Numbered from the stretch's first letter, positions 12,195 to 56,118 are shown. The stretch: 64,000 nt of DNA from an uncultured Roseburia sp. (GCA_947246475.1 CAMXSH010000004.1:26701-90700); one strand, 5' to 3'. Program-made: numbers and translations. The notes: generated from the sequence alone by a model not told the origin.

Positions 12195-12880
12195 TCATGT
12201 CCGCCCCCGATTAGTGTCTGGATCTGTTTTTGGTATATTTGATATAAATCCAGGATTTGTTTGTCAAGTATTAATGCATCATACGAATAAACCTCATTAA
12301 AATTTAGTTCTTTATCTTCTTTACGTTTATATGCTTTTCCTGTTACCCTGTTTTGGGTACATTGATATTTGCTTAATGCAGTTGTTGTCGGAAGATATAC
12401 AGATTTTTGGCCATTATAGAGACTACACTGGATTTCTCTAAGAAAAACGATATATTCTTTGTTATCCTCCATCAACTGATATGCTCCTACAGTCCATACA
12501 CTGTGTTTATCAATATAAGCTGGTTCAAAAATAGATAATGTTTTTCCTGAGACATTACCTTGATATACTTCAAGTACCTCAGCAGTTGTCAATGTACACT
12601 CTGTATACATTGTTCGTTCATTATTTGCTGTTACTTTTAAGCGTACAATTGCATCTGCTGTACCACAAAGCTGCTCAAATGAGGATACTTCTTCTGGCAG
12701 TAGAAATGAAATATCTTCCTCTGAATCCGAAGGCTCGACTGTTAAATTTCCTTCTTTGAGATGGTCCCGCAGCTGGGTATCATCATTCCAGCCTTTGCAA
12801 GTGTTTACTCCCCGGAATATCGAAATGATGAATGCCAGTAACATACAGAAATATGGTAAAAACGTTACGATTTTTCTCAT
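12191..12880 (-). CDS. N-terminally anchored or secreted hypothetical protein
   Basis: Single N-terminal hydrophobic segment followed by a soluble domain; translationally coupled to its neighbours. Confidence 0.65.
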   Translation of the reverse strand: MRKIVTFLPYFCMLLAFIISIFRGVNTCKGWNDDTQLRDHLKEGNLTVEPSDSEEDISFLLPEEVSSFEQLCGTADAIVRLKVTANNERTMYTECTLTTAEVLEVYQGNVSGKTLSIFEPAYIDKHSVWTVGAYQLMEDNKEYIVFLREIQCSLYNGQKSVYLPTTTALSKYQCTQNRVTGKAYKRKEDKELNFNEVYSYDALILDKQILDLYQIYQKQIQTLIGGGHE

Positions 12881-13527
12881 TTTGCTATCCTCCCCACTGC
12901 GTCTATCCTGCCATTTTCCATAGAAATTATTGCATCGCTGTAGGATTGTAGTGATTCTCCATTATGGCTTACAATCACAATTACTGCATTTCTGGACTTT
13001 TCTTCTATAATAATTTTATTAAATCTCCCACAGCCCTCTTTATCCAAAGCATTTGTTGGTTCATCCAATAAAATTATATCTGGTTTTTCCATAATTGCTT
13101 GTGCAATTCCTAATCTCTGCCTCATTCCTAAAGAATATTTTCCCACAGGAACATTTTTTACTTCTTCAAGCCCAACACGGTCTAATACGTCTGAAATTTC
13201 TTTTTCTCCTATACTTTTTTTGATTTCAGCCAGCATTTTCAATGTTTCAAATCCAGTCTTATATTTCCAGAATTCTGGATTTTCAATCAGTACGCCAATA
13301 CTTGGTGGAAAATCTATTTCTTTTTTTAATTCTTGCCCGTTAATTCGCACATAACCGCTTGTAGCAGTAATCAATCCGGCAATAGCACGAAGAAGCATTG
13401 TTTTACCGCAGCCATTATGACCCTGCACACCGTATATTTGTCCGCGTTCAAATTCAAGATTTATATCTTCTAATACATATTTTCCTTTCAATTTTTTGTA
13501 ATAATTTACGATAGAAATAAACCTCAT
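12877..13527 (-). CDS. ABC transporter ATP-binding protein
   Basis: Walker A GHNGCGKT, signature YSLGMRQR, Walker B LLDEPT and H-loop VSH. Confidence 0.93.
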   Translation of the reverse strand: MRFISIVNYYKKLKGKYVLEDINLEFERGQIYGVQGHNGCGKTMLLRAIAGLITATSGYVRINGQELKKEIDFPPSIGVLIENPEFWKYKTGFETLKMLAEIKKSIGEKEISDVLDRVGLEEVKNVPVGKYSLGMRQRLGIAQAIMEKPDIILLDEPTNALDKEGCGRFNKIIIEEKSRNAVIVIVSHNGESLQSYSDAIISMENGRIDAVGRIAK

Positions 13528-14189
13528 ACGATCTCCTTCCTGAAAACATCATTTCTTTTCTGCACTACGATAGTTATAATTGAAATCAGCAGCGAAACCA
13601 TCGCTGCTATAAGGCCATGCAGTAGTTTATTTTCGTATTTACCTCCTGCTTCCTTTATTAGCATTACGGAAAAAATATTGTATATGTATTTTCCCATTCT
13701 GAATAAAACACCATTGGATAGTCCCATCACGATACAGTATCCCCAGGTCAGTAATAAAGCTGCCATTCTGCTCCAAAAAGAAAATAGCAAAAAATACACA
13801 CTTCCAATAAAATACCAGCCAACCAGGTTAATAAATAAAACAATCATTATAAATATTATAAAATTTTCATTTGCGTAATCACATATTCTCATGATAGCTG
13901 CCAGCATTCCGCTAAGTACCAGACTATAGATCAATGAAGTAAAAAATATTTTTTTTATATAATGAAATGTATTTTTACTTTTTTTTCCAACTCGAATCAG
14001 TAATAATTCATTAAATGTCTCCTTTACATCCTCACTTATTATATACAGATATATTGGAGTATATAAAAATAAATAGTATAAAGAAGAACAAATAATGGTA
14101 TATATATTTTCTGATTTATGATACAAAAAAGCATTTGCCAGAAATAATGTAATCAGCAAAATATATGGAATGGTTTTTTTTCTGATCAT
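13524..14189 (-). CDS. Multi-pass membrane protein (putative ABC permease)
   Basis: 221 aa with about 6 hydrophobic segments; coupled to the ABC ATPase gene. Confidence 0.65.
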   Translation of the reverse strand: MIRKKTIPYILLITLFLANAFLYHKSENIYTIICSSLYYLFLYTPIYLYIISEDVKETFNELLLIRVGKKSKNTFHYIKKIFFTSLIYSLVLSGMLAAIMRICDYANENFIIFIMIVLFINLVGWYFIGSVYFLLFSFWSRMAALLLTWGYCIVMGLSNGVLFRMGKYIYNIFSVMLIKEAGGKYENKLLHGLIAAMVSLLISIITIVVQKRNDVFRKEIV

Positions 14190-47578: not shown

Positions 47579-47652
47579 CGGAGCATGGCGTAGTTTGGTA
47601 GCGCGCACGGCTGGGGGCCGTGAGGTCGCAGGTTCAAATCCTGTTGCTCCGA
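47579..47652 (+). tRNA. tRNA-Pro (anticodon GGG); CCA not encoded
   Basis: Acceptor stem CGGAGCA/TGCTCCG, D-loop AGTTTGGTAG, anticodon arm CACGG-CTGGGGG-CCGTG and T-loop GGTTCAAATCC. Confidence 0.97.
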
Positions 47653-47732: not shown

Positions 47733-48794
47733 TTATGAATGATTCAGTTCATTATAAAATTCAATTAGCTGATTGATCGTCTTACGTTCTTTGTTACTAA
47801 TTTTATAAGAATAACTTTTATTATCATCTGTATAAATATTAAATAGTATTTTATCTCCTTGAAAAATATCTATACTCTTTTGCAATTTTTCTTCGTCAGT
47901 AAATAAAAATTGTAGAAATGAAGTATAAAGTCCTATACCATTTTTAATGTCATAACTTAGGTCATAATTACTACTGTCGGATACAATCTTCCCTTTGTTA
48001 GATTTTATATATAATTGTTCTGGAGTATGATAATCATTAAGGTCAGTTATATAGGAGTTTACGAGTAATCCATTTGATATTTCATTGTCTTCGATTATTA
48101 AAGCCCAGCCTGGAATCATATAATAAAAAGCGTCTTTTTTCTCAGTTATATCAAAAAATTTTTTTGATTCTACCCAAACAGTTTTTTTGTCAGAATTTGA
48201 TCTTACTAACAAATTGTCAAGTTTTTTGTCTTTCACAATCTGCTTTGCTGTTTTTTTCAGGTTAGAGAAAGTCCATTTTTGTTTCACAGTAACTTTTACC
48301 TGTTTTTCTCCCTGATTACCGCTTGAATCAGAGGCAAGATATTTTACGCTGTATTCTCCAGCTTTTTTGTTATCAACATTTTGTTCCGAAACCGTGGCTT
48401 CGATATTTTCGCCTGAGTTATCTGTAACGGTTACATCTTTCAATAAGTCAAATTCATCATTCTCATAGATCACAATATCCTCTGCATTGATTTCAGGTGC
48501 AATATCATCATATACGTCCACCAGGTAAGTTGCATCAACCTGGTTGTTATCAGCTGAAATTGTGGTGTCAAGGGAGTAAGATCCCACCTTCTGGGAATTA
48601 AAAGAATCTGCATTTTTAAATCCCAGTTGTACGCCTTCTTCGCATTCAAATAAGTCATTGAGATTAATATTTGTCCCTACTTGAATTCGTGTTTGTTTTT
48701 GTTTTACTTTTTCGGTCAGATCCCCCGAGCAACCAGTTAATGATATTACACATAATCCGGTTGCAATTAGAAGACCAATATTCATTTTCTTCAT
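47733..48794 (-). CDS. AT-rich lipoprotein with bacterial Ig-like (HYR/DUF5011-like) repeats
   Basis: Lipobox LTGC at residue 22; VYDDIAPEI...DVTVTDNSG...KAGEYSVKYLASDSSGN resembles Ig-like repeats. Confidence 0.75.
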   Translation of the reverse strand: MKKMNIGLLIATGLCVISLTGCSGDLTEKVKQKQTRIQVGTNINLNDLFECEEGVQLGFKNADSFNSQKVGSYSLDTTISADNNQVDATYLVDVYDDIAPEINAEDIVIYENDEFDLLKDVTVTDNSGENIEATVSEQNVDNKKAGEYSVKYLASDSSGNQGEKQVKVTVKQKWTFSNLKKTAKQIVKDKKLDNLLVRSNSDKKTVWVESKKFFDITEKKDAFYYMIPGWALIIEDNEISNGLLVNSYITDLNDYHTPEQLYIKSNKGKIVSDSSNYDLSYDIKNGIGLYTSFLQFLFTDEEKLQKSIDIFQGDKILFNIYTDDNKSYSYKISNKERKTINQLIEFYNELNHS

Positions 48795-49063: not shown

Positions 49064-51040
49064 ATGATAAAACTAGATCCAAAAAACCAAAGACTGATCT
49101 TCCAGAGGAGAGATGAACTGACTATAATTGAGCCCTATGGGGAAAATTGTCTTCGTTGCCGGATGACCAGGAATGGGGTGGTCTCAGATGAAAAATGGAC
49201 TTTGCAGGAGGCTGTCACCAAAGATTGCTGCAGGCTGGAAGGGGATGAGATGTTTGCGACAATCACCAATGGTGATATCTCCGCTACTATAGAGACAGGA
49301 CAGCCCTGGTACGGAGGTGTGATCAGTTATTATAAAAAAGGAAAAATGATCTTACATACTAAGTTTGAAGGAGACTATGTGAACCGTTTCGTCCATGTGG
49401 AAGGGGACAATTATCAGATCAAAGTGATCTTTGATGCAAATGAGGGTGAACATTTTTATGGTCTGGGGCAGGAGACGGAGGATGCTTTTGACCGGAAAGG
49501 GAGTACGAGCAATCTGGTTCATTACAATACGAAATCCACGATTCCCTTTTTATATTCTTCTCTGGGATACGGTTTTTTTTGGAACAATCCGTCTCCGGGA
49601 AGGTGTGAGACCACGAGGAACCATACGCTCTGGTGCGCTGATAGTGCATATCAGGCAGATTATCTCGTGTTTACGGGAGATACGCCTGGGGATGTCATGA
49701 AGATTTACAGTGACCTGACGGGGTATGCGCCAAAATTTCCGGCATGGGCGGCAGGTTTTTGGCAGTGCAAGCTGCGTTACGAAAGCCAGGATGAACTGCT
49801 GGAGGTTGCCAGAGAGTATAAAAAGCGGGGGATTCCTATATCAGCCATCGTGATCGACTATTTTCACTGGACAGAACAGGGAGAGTGGAAATTTGATCCC
49901 AAGTATTGGCCAGATCCTGAGAAAATGTGCCGGGAATTGGCAGAGATGGACATCAAGCCCGTTGTTTCTATCTGGCCGACCATCAATCCTGACAGTGAGA
50001 ACTATAACAAAATGAATGATGCCAATATGCTGGTCCGGACGGAGAACGGGCAGTATGGTACATTTTCCTTTTATGGGCAGCAGACTTTTATCGATGCCAT
50101 GAATCCGGACACCAGGGAATATGTGTGGGATATTGTGAAAAATAACTATTATGATAAGGGTATACGGAATTTCTGGCTGGATGAGGCGGAGCCGGAAGTG
50201 CACCCACAGCAGTTCGGGCACCTGAAATTTTATCTCGGAAATGGTGCACAGACTGCGATGCTCTATCCCTATTATTATGCTAAGATGTTTTATGACGGCT
50301 TGAGAGCCCAGGGGGAGGAAGAGATCATTCTTCTGACCAGGGCGGCCTACCCGGGAAGCCAGAAATTTGGAGCAGCTGTCTGGAATGGAGATATTTTATC
50401 GGACTGGGCGGCGCTCCGGCAGAGTGTGACCAGCGGCTTGTCCATGGGAATGTGTGGCATACCATGGTGGAACAGTGATATCGGCGGATTTTTAAATGGG
50501 GATACTGAGAGCGAGGATTTCAGGGAGCTTATTGTCCGCTGGTTCCAGTTCGGGCTGTTCTCTCCGATCATGCGGCTTCACGGCGTGCGAAAAAGAGTGG
50601 AGGGTCAGCCGGAACCGAATCCGGGCATTATTGAGAGAAGTGGCGGTCCTAATGAAATATGGTGTTTTGGTGAAAGAAATTATAACATTATCAAATCTCT
50701 GATCGAGCTGCGGGAAAAGCTGCGCCCTTATATTTTAAAGTATATGGAGATCGCCAGTCAGACAGGAGCACCCTTGATGCGTCCTATGTTTTTTGATTAT
50801 CACAAGGATGCTCACTGCTATACCTTAGAGGAGCAGTATATGTTTGGCGAGGATATTTTGTTTGCCCCTGTCATGCGGAAGGGACAGAGAGAATGTAAAG
50901 TATATCTGCCAGAGGGAACGTGGGTCAGTGTGATCGACAAAAAGGTGTATGAGGGAAGGCAAACGATAGAAGTACAAGTGGAACTGGATCAGTTTGCTGC
51001 CTTTGTAAAGCAGGGAAGCAGTATTATTGATATTTTTTAA
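49064..51040 (+). CDS. Glycoside hydrolase family 31 (alpha-xylosidase-like)
   Basis: GFWQCKLRY, IVIDYFHW, FWLDEAEP (nucleophile Asp), WNSDIGGF, RWFQFG, PIMRLHG and PLMRPMF motifs. Confidence 0.93.
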   Translation: MIKLDPKNQRLIFQRRDELTIIEPYGENCLRCRMTRNGVVSDEKWTLQEAVTKDCCRLEGDEMFATITNGDISATIETGQPWYGGVISYYKKGKMILHTKFEGDYVNRFVHVEGDNYQIKVIFDANEGEHFYGLGQETEDAFDRKGSTSNLVHYNTKSTIPFLYSSLGYGFFWNNPSPGRCETTRNHTLWCADSAYQADYLVFTGDTPGDVMKIYSDLTGYAPKFPAWAAGFWQCKLRYESQDELLEVAREYKKRGIPISAIVIDYFHWTEQGEWKFDPKYWPDPEKMCRELAEMDIKPVVSIWPTINPDSENYNKMNDANMLVRTENGQYGTFSFYGQQTFIDAMNPDTREYVWDIVKNNYYDKGIRNFWLDEAEPEVHPQQFGHLKFYLGNGAQTAMLYPYYYAKMFYDGLRAQGEEEIILLTRAAYPGSQKFGAAVWNGDILSDWAALRQSVTSGLSMGMCGIPWWNSDIGGFLNGDTESEDFRELIVRWFQFGLFSPIMRLHGVRKRVEGQPEPNPGIIERSGGPNEIWCFGERNYNIIKSLIELREKLRPYILKYMEIASQTGAPLMRPMFFDYHKDAHCYTLEEQYMFGEDILFAPVMRKGQRECKVYLPEGTWVSVIDKKVYEGRQTIEVQVELDQFAAFVKQGSSIIDIF

Positions 51041-51145
51041 ATATTGACCAGGTGAATTAAAATTGTTTTTCTTCGGTACAAACAGAAATAAATGTGTTAT
51101 ACTATATTCAGTTCGTTGTGTAAGAATTAAAGGAGAGCAGTGCTT

Positions 51146-52330
51146 ATGTTTAGAAAATTAAAAGTTGACAATTTTAAATCATTAGTGAATTTTTCTATTG
51201 ATTTTTCGCCTATGAGTGTGATTATTGGCAACAATGCCACAGGCAAGAGTAGTGTTTTGCAGGCAATTGATTTCTTGTGCAGTTCAGTAAAAGAAGATTT
51301 TGGGATTATGTTAGAACGTCGGGGCTGGTCGGCAGATAATATCAAGTCTAAATTAATAAATTCAAACAAAATTCATTTTGAGAGTAATATTTTACTTTAT
51401 TCGGATGAAGGAGATCTTAGTTATGACTGGAAAATGGTTTTGTCGATTTATACTGGAAAAAATGAAGTGAGTTTGCTCTCTGAAAGTCTTGTGTGTAATG
51501 GAGAAGAATTGTTAGTGTATCAAAAGGGGAAAGATGGACTGATTAAAGATGAATATAAAGATATTAATATCTTACCCAGAGCGCTGGTGATTCATTCCTC
51601 TGTATTACGAATGTTGAACCGAGATGAGAAGTTGGATTTTCGGATTAAACGTTTTGTTGACTTTTTAGAAAAGTCTGCTTCTTTTGAGATGCTTTCGCCA
51701 AATGAAATGAGACTTAGCAGCCGTGGTGTGAAAAAAAGCATTGGAATGTCTGGGAAAAATTTACCATCATTTATAAAGCAAATGACATCAGAGCAAAAAA
51801 AAAGTTTTATGAATAAGCTGACGTTTCTGTTGGGTGATAGAATTTCTGGAGTAGATGCTAAGACGCAGGGAAAACCTGGTTGGACTCAGATCGATAGTGT
51901 GGAAAAGTATAAAAATAAGGAGATCCATGTATCTTCAAAAGAGATGAGCGATGGAATGCTACGCTTGTTAGCGTTTGTTGCTATCAGTGAAATAAAAGAG
52001 TCCAATGCAACAATGCTTTTAGACGAGGTAGAGAATGGTGTAAATACGAATTATGCGGAGCAGTTGTTAGAACTTCTTGGGAAAATGTATGAAGAGAGAG
52101 GACATCAGTTGATTTTGACAACTCATAGCACGGTATTTATGGACTATATTCCACCAGAAAATATTGTTTATCTGTATCGGGATGATGACGGATACACAAA
52201 GTCTGTGCAACTTTTTGAAAGAGAACAGATGAAAGAACAACTGGACTATATGTATCCAGGAGAGATATTGCTTAATATGTCACAAATGGAGTTGTTGGAT
52301 AAATTACTTGCATATCGTGAGGAAGGTTGA
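51146..52330 (+). CDS. ABC/SMC-like AAA ATPase (AAA_15/AAA_21, COG4637-like)
   Basis: N-terminal KLKVDNFKSL, Walker A GNNATGKSS, signature-like MSDGMLRLL, Walker B LLDEVENG and H-switch LTTHS. Confidence 0.9.
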   Translation: MFRKLKVDNFKSLVNFSIDFSPMSVIIGNNATGKSSVLQAIDFLCSSVKEDFGIMLERRGWSADNIKSKLINSNKIHFESNILLYSDEGDLSYDWKMVLSIYTGKNEVSLLSESLVCNGEELLVYQKGKDGLIKDEYKDINILPRALVIHSSVLRMLNRDEKLDFRIKRFVDFLEKSASFEMLSPNEMRLSSRGVKKSIGMSGKNLPSFIKQMTSEQKKSFMNKLTFLLGDRISGVDAKTQGKPGWTQIDSVEKYKNKEIHVSSKEMSDGMLRLLAFVAISEIKESNATMLLDEVENGVNTNYAEQLLELLGKMYEERGHQLILTTHSTVFMDYIPPENIVYLYRDDDGYTKSVQLFEREQMKEQLDYMYPGEILLNMSQMELLDKLLAYREEG

Positions 52331-52331
52331 T

Positions 52332-53060
52332 ATGATGAAAATTGCTATAACCGGTGAGGGAAACACGGATTATGGGAAAAAAGAGTATGGTACAGGAGAG
52401 TGGTCGCCAGGACCAGCAATCATTTATGCTGAAAAAATAGCAAAAGAGCAAGGAATGAATGTAGAACTGTTGCCAATTGAAAAACAAGACGTCATGAAAG
52501 TAAGAGTGCAAGGACGTTCTACAAAGGGACTGTCTGGAAGAGGCATTCCGGCTAAGAAATTCATGATATTGAAGAATAAGAATAATTGTGATGCCGGAAT
52601 ATTTTACTGTGATGCTGATAAGGGAACAGGAACCAAAAGCAGCAATTGCTCAGCGGTCGTTAAACATTATGAAGAGGTGTATGAAGAAGTAAAGAATGGA
52701 TTGAGTTCAGATCAAGCCATTCCAATGATACCCTTAAGTATGATAGAGTGTTGGATGTTAGGAGATAAAGCAGCTTTGGAACAAATATTTCATCTTTCTA
52801 TTTCTGAAAGTAAACTGCCGGATAAGCCAGAGTATGTCTGGGGAGCAAAAACGGATCCTGATAGTGACTATCCGAAAAATTATTTTGTACGACTAATTCG
52901 TAGCTTGGATCGTCGGTATGGTACATATCAATCTTGTCAGGAAGATTTTAATAAAATTGCAGAGCACTCAACAATCTCAACATTACGAAAAACCTGTCCT
53001 CTTAGTTATGAACGTTTTTACACAGATTTTATTAATTTGCTTAAAAATGTAAATAAATGA
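52332..53060 (+). CDS. TOPRIM-like protein (DUF4276-like)
   Basis: ITGEGNTD (conserved Glu), YCDAD (DxD), MIECWMLGD, PE...YPK and CPLSYERF; starts 2 nt after the ATPase stop. Confidence 0.7.
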   Translation: MMKIAITGEGNTDYGKKEYGTGEWSPGPAIIYAEKIAKEQGMNVELLPIEKQDVMKVRVQGRSTKGLSGRGIPAKKFMILKNKNNCDAGIFYCDADKGTGTKSSNCSAVVKHYEEVYEEVKNGLSSDQAIPMIPLSMIECWMLGDKAALEQIFHLSISESKLPDKPEYVWGAKTDPDSDYPKNYFVRLIRSLDRRYGTYQSCQEDFNKIAEHSTISTLRKTCPLSYERFYTDFINLLKNVNK

Positions 53061-53090: not shown

Positions 53091-53126
53091 CAACCCCGGT
53101 GTGCCAATTACGGCATACCGGGGTTG
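53091..53126. terminator. Likely bidirectional terminator
   Basis: CAACCCCGGTGTGCC / GGCATACCGGGGTTG between convergent genes. Confidence 0.75.
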
Positions 53127-54083: not shown

Positions 54084-54428
54084 GGGCTTGTACTGGTTTC
54101 GACAGGCCGGCTGAAGATGGAGAAGCTATCCGTGGGCTGTGACCACGTTAAAACGCAGAAAAAATTAAACGCTGACGATAATAGATTAGCATACGCAGCC
54201 TAAGTGCTGCTGTCTGACCTGGAGCACCTACACTCTGGGAGCCAGGCATCAATGATGTAGGAAACGACGTATATTAAGCTTTGCGTATACGGGCGTATCA
54301 TGAAGCTACTAAAGCCTGAAGGATGTTCATTTCCGTCAGGTGGAGGGAATGTAAAAGAATGAACTATGATAGTAGAAGTACATGGGATTCCGGTTTGGAC
54401 GCGGGTTCGATTCCCGCCAGGTCCACCA
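54084..54428 (+). ncRNA. ssrA: tmRNA; tag peptide (A)DDNRLAYAA encoded at 54171-54203
   Basis: 5' GGGCTTGTACTGGTTTCGAC pairs with 3' CAGGTCCACCA including a G.U pair; T-arm GCGGGTTCGATTCCCGC; internal ORF GCT GAC GAT AAT AGA TTA GCA TAC GCA GCC TAA. Confidence 0.97.
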
Positions 54429-56118
54429 GAAAGTTCTTACTCCAACCCTTACCAAAAAAATTTAATAAGCGGTTGGGTATTGTGGATAGGAAGCTCGTGA
54501 GCATTTGCTCACGAGCTTCTGCGTTCTCTGCAGTATTATATTTAGCAACCTCATCTTTGATCGGTTCTACCAGCATCGTAAATGGTTCAGCAAACTCTGC
54601 TGTCACTTTTCCGTCGGAACCAATCAGCAGGCGTTCAAAGATAGCCTGGTTCATTAGCTTCTTCATCTTATCATTTGCCAAACGGTAGGTCATGCCACAG
54701 TCAGTAATCAGTTCAATGGCATCGTCCAGTCGTTCTATAATCGTGGTAAACGTATAGTCATATGCTTTGGTCTGATGATCGATTGTGGCAAGCTGCTTAG
54801 CGATTTTCTGTTGTTCACTTTTAAGTAGGTCAAGTGGGATGGCATCGTTGTAATGTGCCTCAAGCAGTTTCTTACGCTGCCTCTCCAGCTTATCTTTCTC
54901 CCGGCGCAGCCCGTCTAACTCGGTTTCGTATTTATCACGTTCTTTTTCTATATTCTGCCTCAGCCAGTCTTCCAGATAACTGGCTATTTGGGGAGGGAAA
55001 GAATATCGGTCATAAATCTGTTCCACTTGCCGCTCGACATCCGCAATCAATACCGCCCGCTGTTTACAGTCCGTACGTTTGCTATGCCGTCCCCCGCAGA
55101 CAAAATACGGATAGCGGATGCCGGTATGGGATTTGGTATAGTTGACAATCATCCGTGCCCCACAGTTTTTACAGAAAACACTGCCCTTTAAGAAATGAGG
55201 GTGTTCACGGGTGCGCTCGCCGTTGATATGCGATTCCAGAATATCCTGCACCTGCTGCCAGGTGTCGGCATCTGTCAGTGCCGGGTGTGTCCCCTCATAT
55301 TCTGCGCCTTGGTATGACACAATGCCCTTGTAATAAGGATTTATCAGTATCTTGTTCAAGGATTTTTTGTTGATGGGCTGGGATGGGATTCTGGGCGTGG
55401 CACGGGTAGTCAGACCGCAGGCTGCCAGATGTTCTGCCAAATCCTGTACCGTCCAGTTGCCGGTGGCATATTCCTCAAATGCCAGCTTAATCAATGGGGC
55501 GCGCTCTTCATCCAGTATGACTGTCCGTTCCTCCCGTCCCTTATCGTCTGTACGCCGGATATTGAGGTAGCCAAGCGGAGCACGGCTGGGCGTCCCTCCT
55601 CCTTTAACTTTCTCGTTCAGGCCCTTTTTAACTTCGTTTGCCAGATTTTGTGAGTAAAACTCGGCGATGGAACTCATAATGCCATGCAGCAGCATTCCGG
55701 CAGGGGTATCATCTATGCTTTCTGAAGCTGATACCAGCTGGATGCCGCATTCACGCAATGTGCGCATAATGTCAACGTCATCACCGCGGTTGCGTGCGAG
55801 ACGGTCGACCTTATGTACAATCACGTAATCAATCCTGTCGGCATTTTCTTTGACATATTCCAGCATTTTCTGGAGTTCCGGGCGGTCTGCCGATTTGGCG
55901 GAAGTACCCCGGTCAACAAATTCCTTGCCAACCATTGCGCCCATGGAGAGTGCTTTTTTCTTGTTCGCTTCTCTCTGCGCAGGAATAGAGAACCCCTCAT
56001 CTGCACCGCCGCCACGTTCTGCCTGTCCGCGCGTAGAAACCCGGAGGTATGATACGGCAAACTTCGGTGTCATGGCATCGGTCAGTGACTGCATGGGGTT
56101 AGCTGTAGTGTATTCCAT
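54364..56118 (-). CDS. Large serine recombinase (integrase)
   Basis: YLRVST catalytic Ser motif, KVDRLARN, AEFYSQNLANEVKKG, recombinase domain (APLGY, NPYYKG), zinc ribbon CKNCG...C...C and a coiled coil. Confidence 0.95.
   Translation of the reverse strand: MEYTTANPMQSLTDAMTPKFAVSYLRVSTRGQAERGGGADEGFSIPAQREANKKKALSMGAMVGKEFVDRGTSAKSADRPELQKMLEYVKENADRIDYVIVHKVDRLARNRGDDVDIMRTLRECGIQLVSASESIDDTPAGMLLHGIMSSIAEFYSQNLANEVKKGLNEKVKGGGTPSRAPLGYLNIRRTDDKGREERTVILDEERAPLIKLAFEEYATGNWTVQDLAEHLAACGLTTRATPRIPSQPINKKSLNKILINPYYKGIVSYQGAEYEGTHPALTDADTWQQVQDILESHINGERTREHPHFLKGSVFCKNCGARMIVNYTKSHTGIRYPYFVCGGRHSKRTDCKQRAVLIADVERQVEQIYDRYSFPPQIASYLEDWLRQNIEKERDKYETELDGLRREKDKLERQRKKLLEAHYNDAIPLDLLKSEQQKIAKQLATIDHQTKAYDYTFTTIIERLDDAIELITDCGMTYRLANDKMKKLMNQAIFERLLIGSDGKVTAEFAEPFTMLVEPIKDEVAKYNTAENAEAREQMLTSFLSTIPNRLLNFFGKGWSKNFLVDLAGIEPASKPESHVLLLS

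Follow-up and report, generated by a model that had tools for sequence, protein, structure and literature searches.

A two-gene ABC ATPase and DUF4276-like module from an uncultured Roseburia sp. that, judged by sequence, is a divergent branch of the candidate family PDC-M25

The window, a stretch of 64,000 nucleotides from an uncultured Roseburia sp., contains a compact pair of genes that encode an ABC-type ATPase and a putative nuclease partner. The features of the pair, with the basis of each call, are listed below.

51095-51103, plus strand: possible extended -10 promoter element, TGTTATACT, some 40 nt before the ATPase start codon (sequence reading, weak)
51146-52330, plus strand: ABC-type (SMC/Rad50/PtuA/OLD-like) ATPase gene, 394 aa (ORF call, profiles and fold model)
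51227-51250, plus strand: Walker A of the ATPase (translation)
51947-51964, plus strand: signature motif of the ATPase (translation)
52013-52027, plus strand: Walker B of the ATPase (translation)
52118-52129, plus strand: H-loop of the ATPase (translation)
52319-52326, plus strand: ribosome-binding site of the partner gene, GAGGAAGG, within the 3' end of the ATPase gene (sequence reading)
52332-53060, plus strand: gene for a DUF4276-subfamily, TOPRIM-like putative metal-dependent nuclease, 242 aa (profiles, AF2 model and hhalign)
52353-52370, plus strand: GEGNTD of the partner, containing E9 (translation)
52611-52619, plus strand: DAD of the partner, D94 and D96 (translation)
52743-52754, plus strand: IECW of the partner, containing E139 (translation)
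52830-52832, plus strand: E167 of the partner (alignment)
52875-52877, plus strand: K182 of the partner (alignment)
53091-53126, no strand assigned: 15-bp hairpin, rich in GC, where the partner and deacetylase genes converge (RNA fold)

The ATPase ORF extends from 51140 or 51146 to 52330. Its likeliest start is the ATG at 51146, which has a ribosome-binding site 10 nt upstream (AAAGGAG, 51129-51135, from sequence reading) and fits the PADLOC model, with model position 1 aligned at this start. The partner ORF begins at 52308 or 52332, most likely at the ATG at 52332, and ends at 53060. Independent gene calls on metagenome contigs repeated the 394-aa and 242-aa products. The ATPase stop codon (TGA, 52328-52330) is one base away from the partner ATG on the same strand, and the partner's ribosome-binding site lies within the ATPase gene; therefore, the two genes are translationally coupled. 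The pair is 31-38% G+C, compared to 45-50% for the GH31 gene upstream. An AT-rich two-gene operon at 51146-53060, as proposed in a preliminary description of this DNA, was thus confirmed. A second promoter-like site was found at 51036-51063 with 9 of 12 consensus matches, and the number of such sites was no higher than in shuffled sequence.

Other early statements about the locus held in part. The operon had been given its own terminator. The hairpin at 53091-53126 is strong (-32.9 kcal/mol, z -5.2, with none of 200 shuffles as stable), but it lacks a clean U-tract and did not appear in the output of a terminator scan. It is a probable bidirectional terminator. The genes on either side, GH31 and a polysaccharide deacetylase, had been described as core genes. 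This is true of the deacetylase, which is kept in 21 of 26 species of the genus, but not of GH31, which was not syntenic with the deacetylase in the other species examined. The tmRNA gene, ssrA (54084-54428), was said to be about 1 kb away, and the measured distance from the pair is 1.0 kb. This proximity is incidental because the conserved deacetylase gene lies between the pair and ssrA, and the serine-recombinase element integrated at ssrA lies on the far side. The idea that the pair is cargo of that element was rejected, as the element starts at the ssrA 3' end, past the deacetylase gene. An empty site, with GH31 beside the deacetylase and the pair missing, was sought in the genus and none was found; other species carry different genes beside the deacetylase, and every contig with an identical deacetylase also carries the pair. 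Phage genomes searched by DNA and protein gave no match and so provided no evidence for a phage-borne pair. Within the window, no restriction-modification (R-M) or BREX link to the pair was found, and no methyltransferase is adjacent to it.

Translation of the first gene gave a Walker A motif (GNNATGKS), a signature (SDGMLR), a Walker B motif (MLLDE), and an H-loop (TTHS), all invariant across the relatives compared. These motifs, and the GEGxTD, DAD, and IExW motifs of the partner, had been noted earlier and were all verified. The ATPase matched Pfam AAA_21 (5e-24) as well as AAA_15. Its AF2 model (pLDDT 89.8) was compared to known structures using Foldseek, and the best matches were PtuA, the retron I-A ATPase, an SMC head, OLD (6p74), Rad50, and GajA, with E values from 1e-13 to 1e-10. 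The closest neighbors by structure are mostly defense ATPases. The least conserved segment of the protein in the conservation profile is residues 81-180, approximately. With both the motifs and the ABC fold in place, the first gene product is an ABC ATPase of the SMC/Rad50/OLD/PtuA class.

The partner carries GEGNTD, DAD, and IECW. In an alignment of 81 partner sequences, E9, G15, G27, D94, E139, W141, and E167 are invariant, and conservation reaches at least 90% at G8, G10, D13, D96, D145, and K182. The AF2 model (pLDDT 96, pTM 0.92) predicts a core with the order beta1-alpha-beta2-alpha-beta3-alpha-beta4 and, after it, a helical domain at the C terminus (residues 181-241, approximately). E9 is placed just after strand 1 (residues 2-7) and D94-x-D96 just after strand 3 (residues 88-92), which is the TOPRIM arrangement. 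Against Pfam DUF4276 (PF14103), the window protein itself scored 26.3 bits (E 1e-5), short of the gathering threshold of 30.2, and the match covered only the C-terminal half. The same model was matched by 76 of the 81 full-length relatives with E values no higher than 0.01 (best 5.7e-13). By these profile matches, the partner family clearly represents a divergent DUF4276 subfamily; it comprises 333 clusters at 50% identity among 1.84 billion representatives. DUF4276 has been assigned to the TOPRIM superfamily (PMC12065111; PMC11464382).

Comparisons of fold were less direct. When the partner model was searched in PDB and BFVD with Foldseek, no hit was significant and no TOPRIM entry came up, only flavodoxin-like and SGNH folds (E above 0.007; best E 0.013, TM 0.3 or lower), and a profile of the 81 partner sequences had no match among PDB sequences. 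Alignment of the partner family with OLD-type TOPRIM domains from 14 genomes, using hhalign, was not significant. The sole stretch aligned in that comparison sets DAD onto the OLD DxD. The partner is best described as TOPRIM-like, an assignment that rests on the motifs, the model topology, and the literature, since the Foldseek and profile comparisons did not recover the fold.

Next to these general assignments, PADLOC-DB provided a specific one. The ATPase matched PDC-M25A with an E value of 2.4e-79 (residues 3-391 on model positions 1-371 of 380), and the other matches, HEC-01A (8e-36), PDC-M07A, AbiLi, AriA, and mad3, were far behind. The window partner matched HEC-01B (7e-9) and, over the N-terminal third (model positions 1-95 of 248), the PDC-M25B models (8e-6 to 9.5e-6). 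Among its 81 relatives, 77 matched the PDC-M25B and HEC-01B models, with a best PDC-M25B E value of 3e-16, and none matched the mad4, AriB, or AbiLii models. The PDCs are 145 candidates that were predicted from their embedding in BREX, DISARM, or type I R-M systems (Payne et al., bioRxiv 10.1101/2024.01.29.577857). This embedding was the criterion for discovery and is not demanded of every homologue. A literature search by the name PDC-M25 found no paper.

Full-length homologues of the ATPase, 25-29% identical, were found by tblastn on eight proteobacterial plasmids, two of which were opened to view the gene context. On both, an Azotobacter plasmid and Acinetobacter pNDM1_010055, the ATPase gene and a gene for a hypothetical protein of about 245 aa lie between pglX and pglZ of BREX-1. 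Both plasmid pairs are archetypal PDC-M25, scoring 1e-155 to 1e-167 on the A model and 1e-92 to 1e-98 on the B model. The window partner family aligned with the Acinetobacter PDC-M25B from end to end in hhalign (97.8%, E 8e-13, 211 columns). Gene order and sizes are also shared, an ABC ATPase of about 380 aa followed by a DUF4276-like protein of about 245 aa, and so are the GEGxxD, D-x-D, and E-x-W motifs. The window pair differs from the proteobacterial archetypes in its low identity to them (25-29% for the ATPase and about 20% for the partner), in standing alone outside BREX, DISARM, and type I R-M, and in having relatives largely in glycan loci of gut Firmicutes. On this profile and alignment evidence, the pair belongs to PDC-M25, a candidate family in PADLOC, as a divergent branch from gut Firmicutes (Lachnospiraceae), and is close to HEC-01. 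The pair matches an already described system and is therefore real but not novel. With it, a candidate family so far defined mainly by proteobacterial, BREX-embedded examples gains a gut-Firmicute branch of about 330 clusters at 50% identity.

The statement in the preliminary description that no characterized example of such a pair was known has to be withdrawn: PDC-M25 has been catalogued, HEC-01 has been tested, and MAD3-MAD4 has been both solved and assayed. MAD3-MAD4, an ABC ATPase and a DUF4276 protein from the MADS system of Pseudomonas aeruginosa, is a 2:2 heterotetramer (NAR 2026, PMC13662399). MAD4 alone is insoluble or unstable, and MAD3 hydrolyzes ATP only within the complex (PMC13662399). 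The complex binds and cuts plasmid DNA, and cleavage was seen only in the complex; active-site mutants lowered it only modestly, and the tie between ATP hydrolysis and cleavage was left open (PMC13662399). The same paper describes the full MADS system as antiphage (PMC13662399). The window pair is not orthologous to MAD3-MAD4, as the ATPase scored 91 bits against the MAD3 NCBIfam model, which has a cut-off of 420, and mad4 went unmatched in the partner family. In addition, MADS consists of eight genes and is linked to methylation, in contrast to the bare pair in the window, near which no methyltransferase lies. HEC-01 (Hma-embedded candidate 01) is likewise a two-gene ABC ATPase and TOPRIM (DUF4276) system, and in E. 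coli it did not protect against the phages tested (bioRxiv 10.1101/2024.01.29.577857). It is defined by embedding in Hma, and its ATPase model, HEC-01A, matches the window ATPase less well than PDC-M25A does.

More distant comparisons can be made with PARIS (AriA/AriB), AbiL (AbiLi/AbiLii), and OLD or Gabija GajA, in which an AAA_15/AAA_21 ABC ATPase is likewise paired with or fused to a TOPRIM-superfamily nuclease. MADS3-4 and AbiL have been counted among ABC ATPase and TOPRIM systems and grouped in an AAA15/21 tree (PMC11464382). The analogy to OLD, PARIS, and Gabija that was drawn from the sequence at the outset, together with the ABC ATPase and DUF4276-like domain calls, agrees with the results from Pfam, PADLOC-DB, the AF2 topology, and Foldseek of the ATPase. 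However, the TOPRIM families of these systems are DUF4435, RloB, and the OLD-like TOPRIM PF20469, and the window partner has no HMM match to them. PF20469 had no match in the window's own genome. OLD and GajA are also fused proteins, whereas the window has two separate genes.

The distribution of the pair was then considered. In species-representative genomes (Lachnospiraceae, a Treponema, and a Succinivibrionaceae MAG), the ATPase gene was directly upstream of the partner gene in all 19 loci, across which partner identity ranged from 31% to 99%. Pairwise identities of the two proteins were correlated at the 17 intact loci (Mantel r 0.76, reached by none of 5000 permutations). In comparison with the closest distinct relative, the ATPase had a dN/dS of 0.09 and the partner one of 0.12. 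The two proteins co-evolve, and both are under purifying selection (dN/dS about 0.1). Within the genus, the ATPase search covered 25 species and found the pair in two of them (G000 and G001), and a third (G041) was seen to have it beside the deacetylase, outside that search. One more species (G004) has a 78%-identical ATPase without a partner and a large surface-protein gene directly after it. The best explanation for this patchiness and the foreign-looking composition is that the pair is a horizontally acquired accessory module.

Partner genes were found in various states of decay. The gene is frameshifted at two loci (L008 and L015), N-terminally deleted at L016, internally deleted at L017, interrupted by a stop at L018, and missing in G004. 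Of about 21 species-level loci, 6 have a broken or absent partner, and the adjacent ATPase is intact at each of these. A Fisher test of this asymmetry gave p 0.047 from a 5-versus-0 count, made before the sixth case was recognized. Loss of the partner with retention of the ATPase fits a costly nuclease effector, with the numbers being small. MAG assembly errors may account for the frameshifts, though not for the deletions.

The genes around the relatives gave mixed support for a role in defense. The expectation of defense-island neighbors stood for some loci, where defense or toxin-antitoxin genes are present, but glycan and flagellin genes dominate. At the Roseburia hominis locus, two more ABC-ATPase modules are immediately upstream, one of them PDC-M38A/AbiLi-like (3e-64). 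In a Treponema, the locus includes PDC-M25A and HEC-02A genes, both truncated, and one further locus has an AbiLi-like ATPase. HipA kinase genes are present at three loci, and a Panacea-domain gene and a PARP+SecB / HD_assoc / DUF2971 islet are also among the neighbors. The commonest immediate neighbors are genes for glycan biosynthesis, flagellin glycosylation, and surface proteins, rather than known defense genes. These neighborhoods argue against a simple defense-island picture.

On metagenome contigs, four of the five ATPase variants looked up have the pair in NeuB/DegT/PglD/CTP-transferase/Maf clusters, beside flagellin genes, or between duplicated manC genes. The glycan clusters that hold the pair include nonulosonic-acid and polysaccharide clusters, and an identical ATPase occurs amid differing sets of glycan genes. 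At least one glycan-like gene was present within five genes on either side in 6 of 15 genome loci, compared to 9.7% of 10-gene windows in the window's own genome, and at least three were present in 3 of 15, compared to 1.1%. The glycan-like genes in these counts were called by crude BLAST transfer of relatives' annotations, the background is a single genome, and one locus is not independent of the annotation set, so the enrichment in glycan loci is suggestive only. The co-location may reflect hitch-hiking in exchange hot spots.

The pair is intact, translationally coupled, and always adjacent, with the catalytic motifs of the ATPase and the acidic residues of the partner conserved. We favor the reading, with a probability of roughly 60%, that it is a self-contained, horizontally acquired ATPase and DUF4276 nuclease module of the PDC-M25 branch that would act as a DNA-cutting complex, most likely in defense against phages or other mobile DNA. 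We infer the assembly, substrate, and trigger of this complex by analogy with MAD3-MAD4. The ATPase and partner would assemble as a hetero-oligomer, probably 2:2, in which the ATPase dimer would become competent for ATP hydrolysis and would stabilize and position the Mg2+ site of the nuclease at the interface. The complex would then bind and cut its nucleic-acid target, which is most likely foreign DNA. The surface for sensing or specificity would probably be the variable ATPase insert (residues 81-180, approximately). Should the pair turn out to protect, it would become the first stand-alone ABC ATPase and DUF4276 system to be validated and a compact two-protein model for the control of MAD3-MAD4-type nucleases.

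An alternative mechanism, favored in the preliminary description, is PARIS-like abortive infection, in which the ATPase keeps the nuclease inactive until a phage protein causes its ATP-dependent release. Host tRNA would then be cut by the freed TOPRIM nuclease, and the cell would be arrested. PARIS has the same two-gene ABC ATPase and TOPRIM layout (PMC11464382), and the AriA models do match the window ATPase, although the match is weak and partial (5e-26) and far behind PDC-M25A. The loss of the partner beside an ATPase that is always intact would fit a toxic effector that is never left unguarded, but some of these disruptions may be errors in MAG assembly. Against the alternative, none of the 81 partner relatives matched AriB, DUF4435, or mad4, and AriA was absent from the top 50 Foldseek matches of the ATPase model. 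The nearest characterized DUF4276 protein, MAD4, also follows the opposite logic, as it is unstable alone and active on DNA only in the complex. A release-and-kill tRNase is possible, but it is less supported than a MAD3-MAD4-type complex, and we consider it unlikely.

The DNA-cutting complex that we prefer could have a further connection to surface glycans. In this doubtful reading, the Lachnospiraceae and Treponema branch would be preferentially lodged in surface-glycan and flagellin-glycosylation clusters and would stay in place while the glycan genes are swapped. A phage-receptor diversification locus and a nuclease-based immune cassette would then be passed on and exchanged as one, or the module itself would have a part in turnover of the locus, and the preferential decay of the nuclease gene beside a retained ATPase would reflect the cost of a self-targeting effector. 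If the glycan link holds, it bears on the joint travel of receptor variation and immunity in gut commensals.

[quoted passage not shown] The pair could, by analogy, be a module for nucleic-acid maintenance or recombination, or a selfish addiction cassette, that resides in hypervariable glycan loci and is not primarily immune. This is quite unlikely: the repeated occurrence inside nonulosonic-acid, flagellin-glycosylation, or polysaccharide clusters, the glycan-like neighbors in excess of background, the same ATPase amid different glycan genes, and the failure of HEC-01 to defend are in its favor, but the pair is patchy in the genus and foreign-looking in composition, the family archetypes lie within BREX-1 on plasmids, the proteins that the ATPase most resembles in structure are largely defense ATPases, and the glycan association could come from hitch-hiking in known exchange hot spots, measured against a one-genome background with annotations derived from related loci. 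Lastly, two minus-strand ORFs that overlap the pair, at 51127-51369 and 52272-52511, were taken as chance frames in AT-rich DNA.

The DUF4276 partner gene was found to be frameshifted, truncated, interrupted or absent in six of about 21 species-level loci, and the adjoining ATPase ORF was intact in all six. The affected loci are as follows:

L008:6128-6854, partner frameshifted
L015:10001-10728, partner frameshifted
L016:10001-10537, partner deleted at its N-terminus
L017:10001-10620, partner internally deleted
L018:1270-2022, partner interrupted by a stop
L064:999-2300, ATPase locus of the congeneric genome G004, partner absent

In G004, a gene for a 1110-aa surface protein directly follows the ATPase gene.

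Homologous ATPase and DUF4276 pairs recurrently sit in surface-glycan, nonulosonic-acid or flagellin-glycosylation clusters, as seen in metagenome contigs (L024-L038) and genome loci (L005, L006, L007, L009, L013 and L015). These clusters contain genes for NeuB, DegT, PglD, CTP_transf_3, Maf/MptE-like proteins, manC, glycosyltransferases and flagellin, and the glycan gene sets differ around one and the same ATPase protein. On proteobacterial plasmids, archetypal pairs of the PADLOC family PDC-M25 lie between pglX and pglZ of BREX-1 (L087:9001-10901 on NZ_CP045303.1; L088:6001-7869 on NZ_CP032284.1). One of these two plasmids is conjugative, and one bears the name pNDM1_010055.

Other ATPase and defence-like genes were also observed near relatives of the pair. 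In a Roseburia hominis MAG, two more ABC-ATPase modules lie immediately upstream (L005:4363-8650), making three ATPase-based candidate systems in a row. One module is PDC-M38A/AbiLi-like (3e-64), and the other ATPase is followed by genes of 208 aa and 282 aa. Duplicated manC genes also enclose the pair (L024:4224-9864 and 12280-13805; L026:5197-8754). Its flanks there hold a PARP-domain gene with a SecB-like gene, HD_assoc and DUF2971 genes, and a gene for an unknown protein of 1009 aa; in one variant contig a 1185-aa SMC_N/AAA_23 protein replaces the upstream part. The stretch between the manC copies resembles a small, variable islet of defence or toxin genes. AAA-ATPase_like and PDDEXK_9 genes (PF09820/PF08011) recur no more than a few kb from the pair in several Lachnospiraceae loci:

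L028:12280-15141
L036:18065-19762
L015:11087-14404
L017:5985-7037

Two further features were noted in the window:

54364-56118, large serine recombinase gene overlapping the ssrA 3' end
47733-48794, minus strand, 353-aa lipoprotein-like gene, 26-37% G+C

In G010, which belongs to a different species of the genus, a recombinase with 95% identity occupies the same ssrA-adjacent position (L057:7607-9639); the elements integrated at ssrA in the two species are therefore the same or very similar. The lipoprotein-like gene directly adjoins tRNA-Pro (47579-47652), and its region is a further compositionally foreign stretch near the pair.
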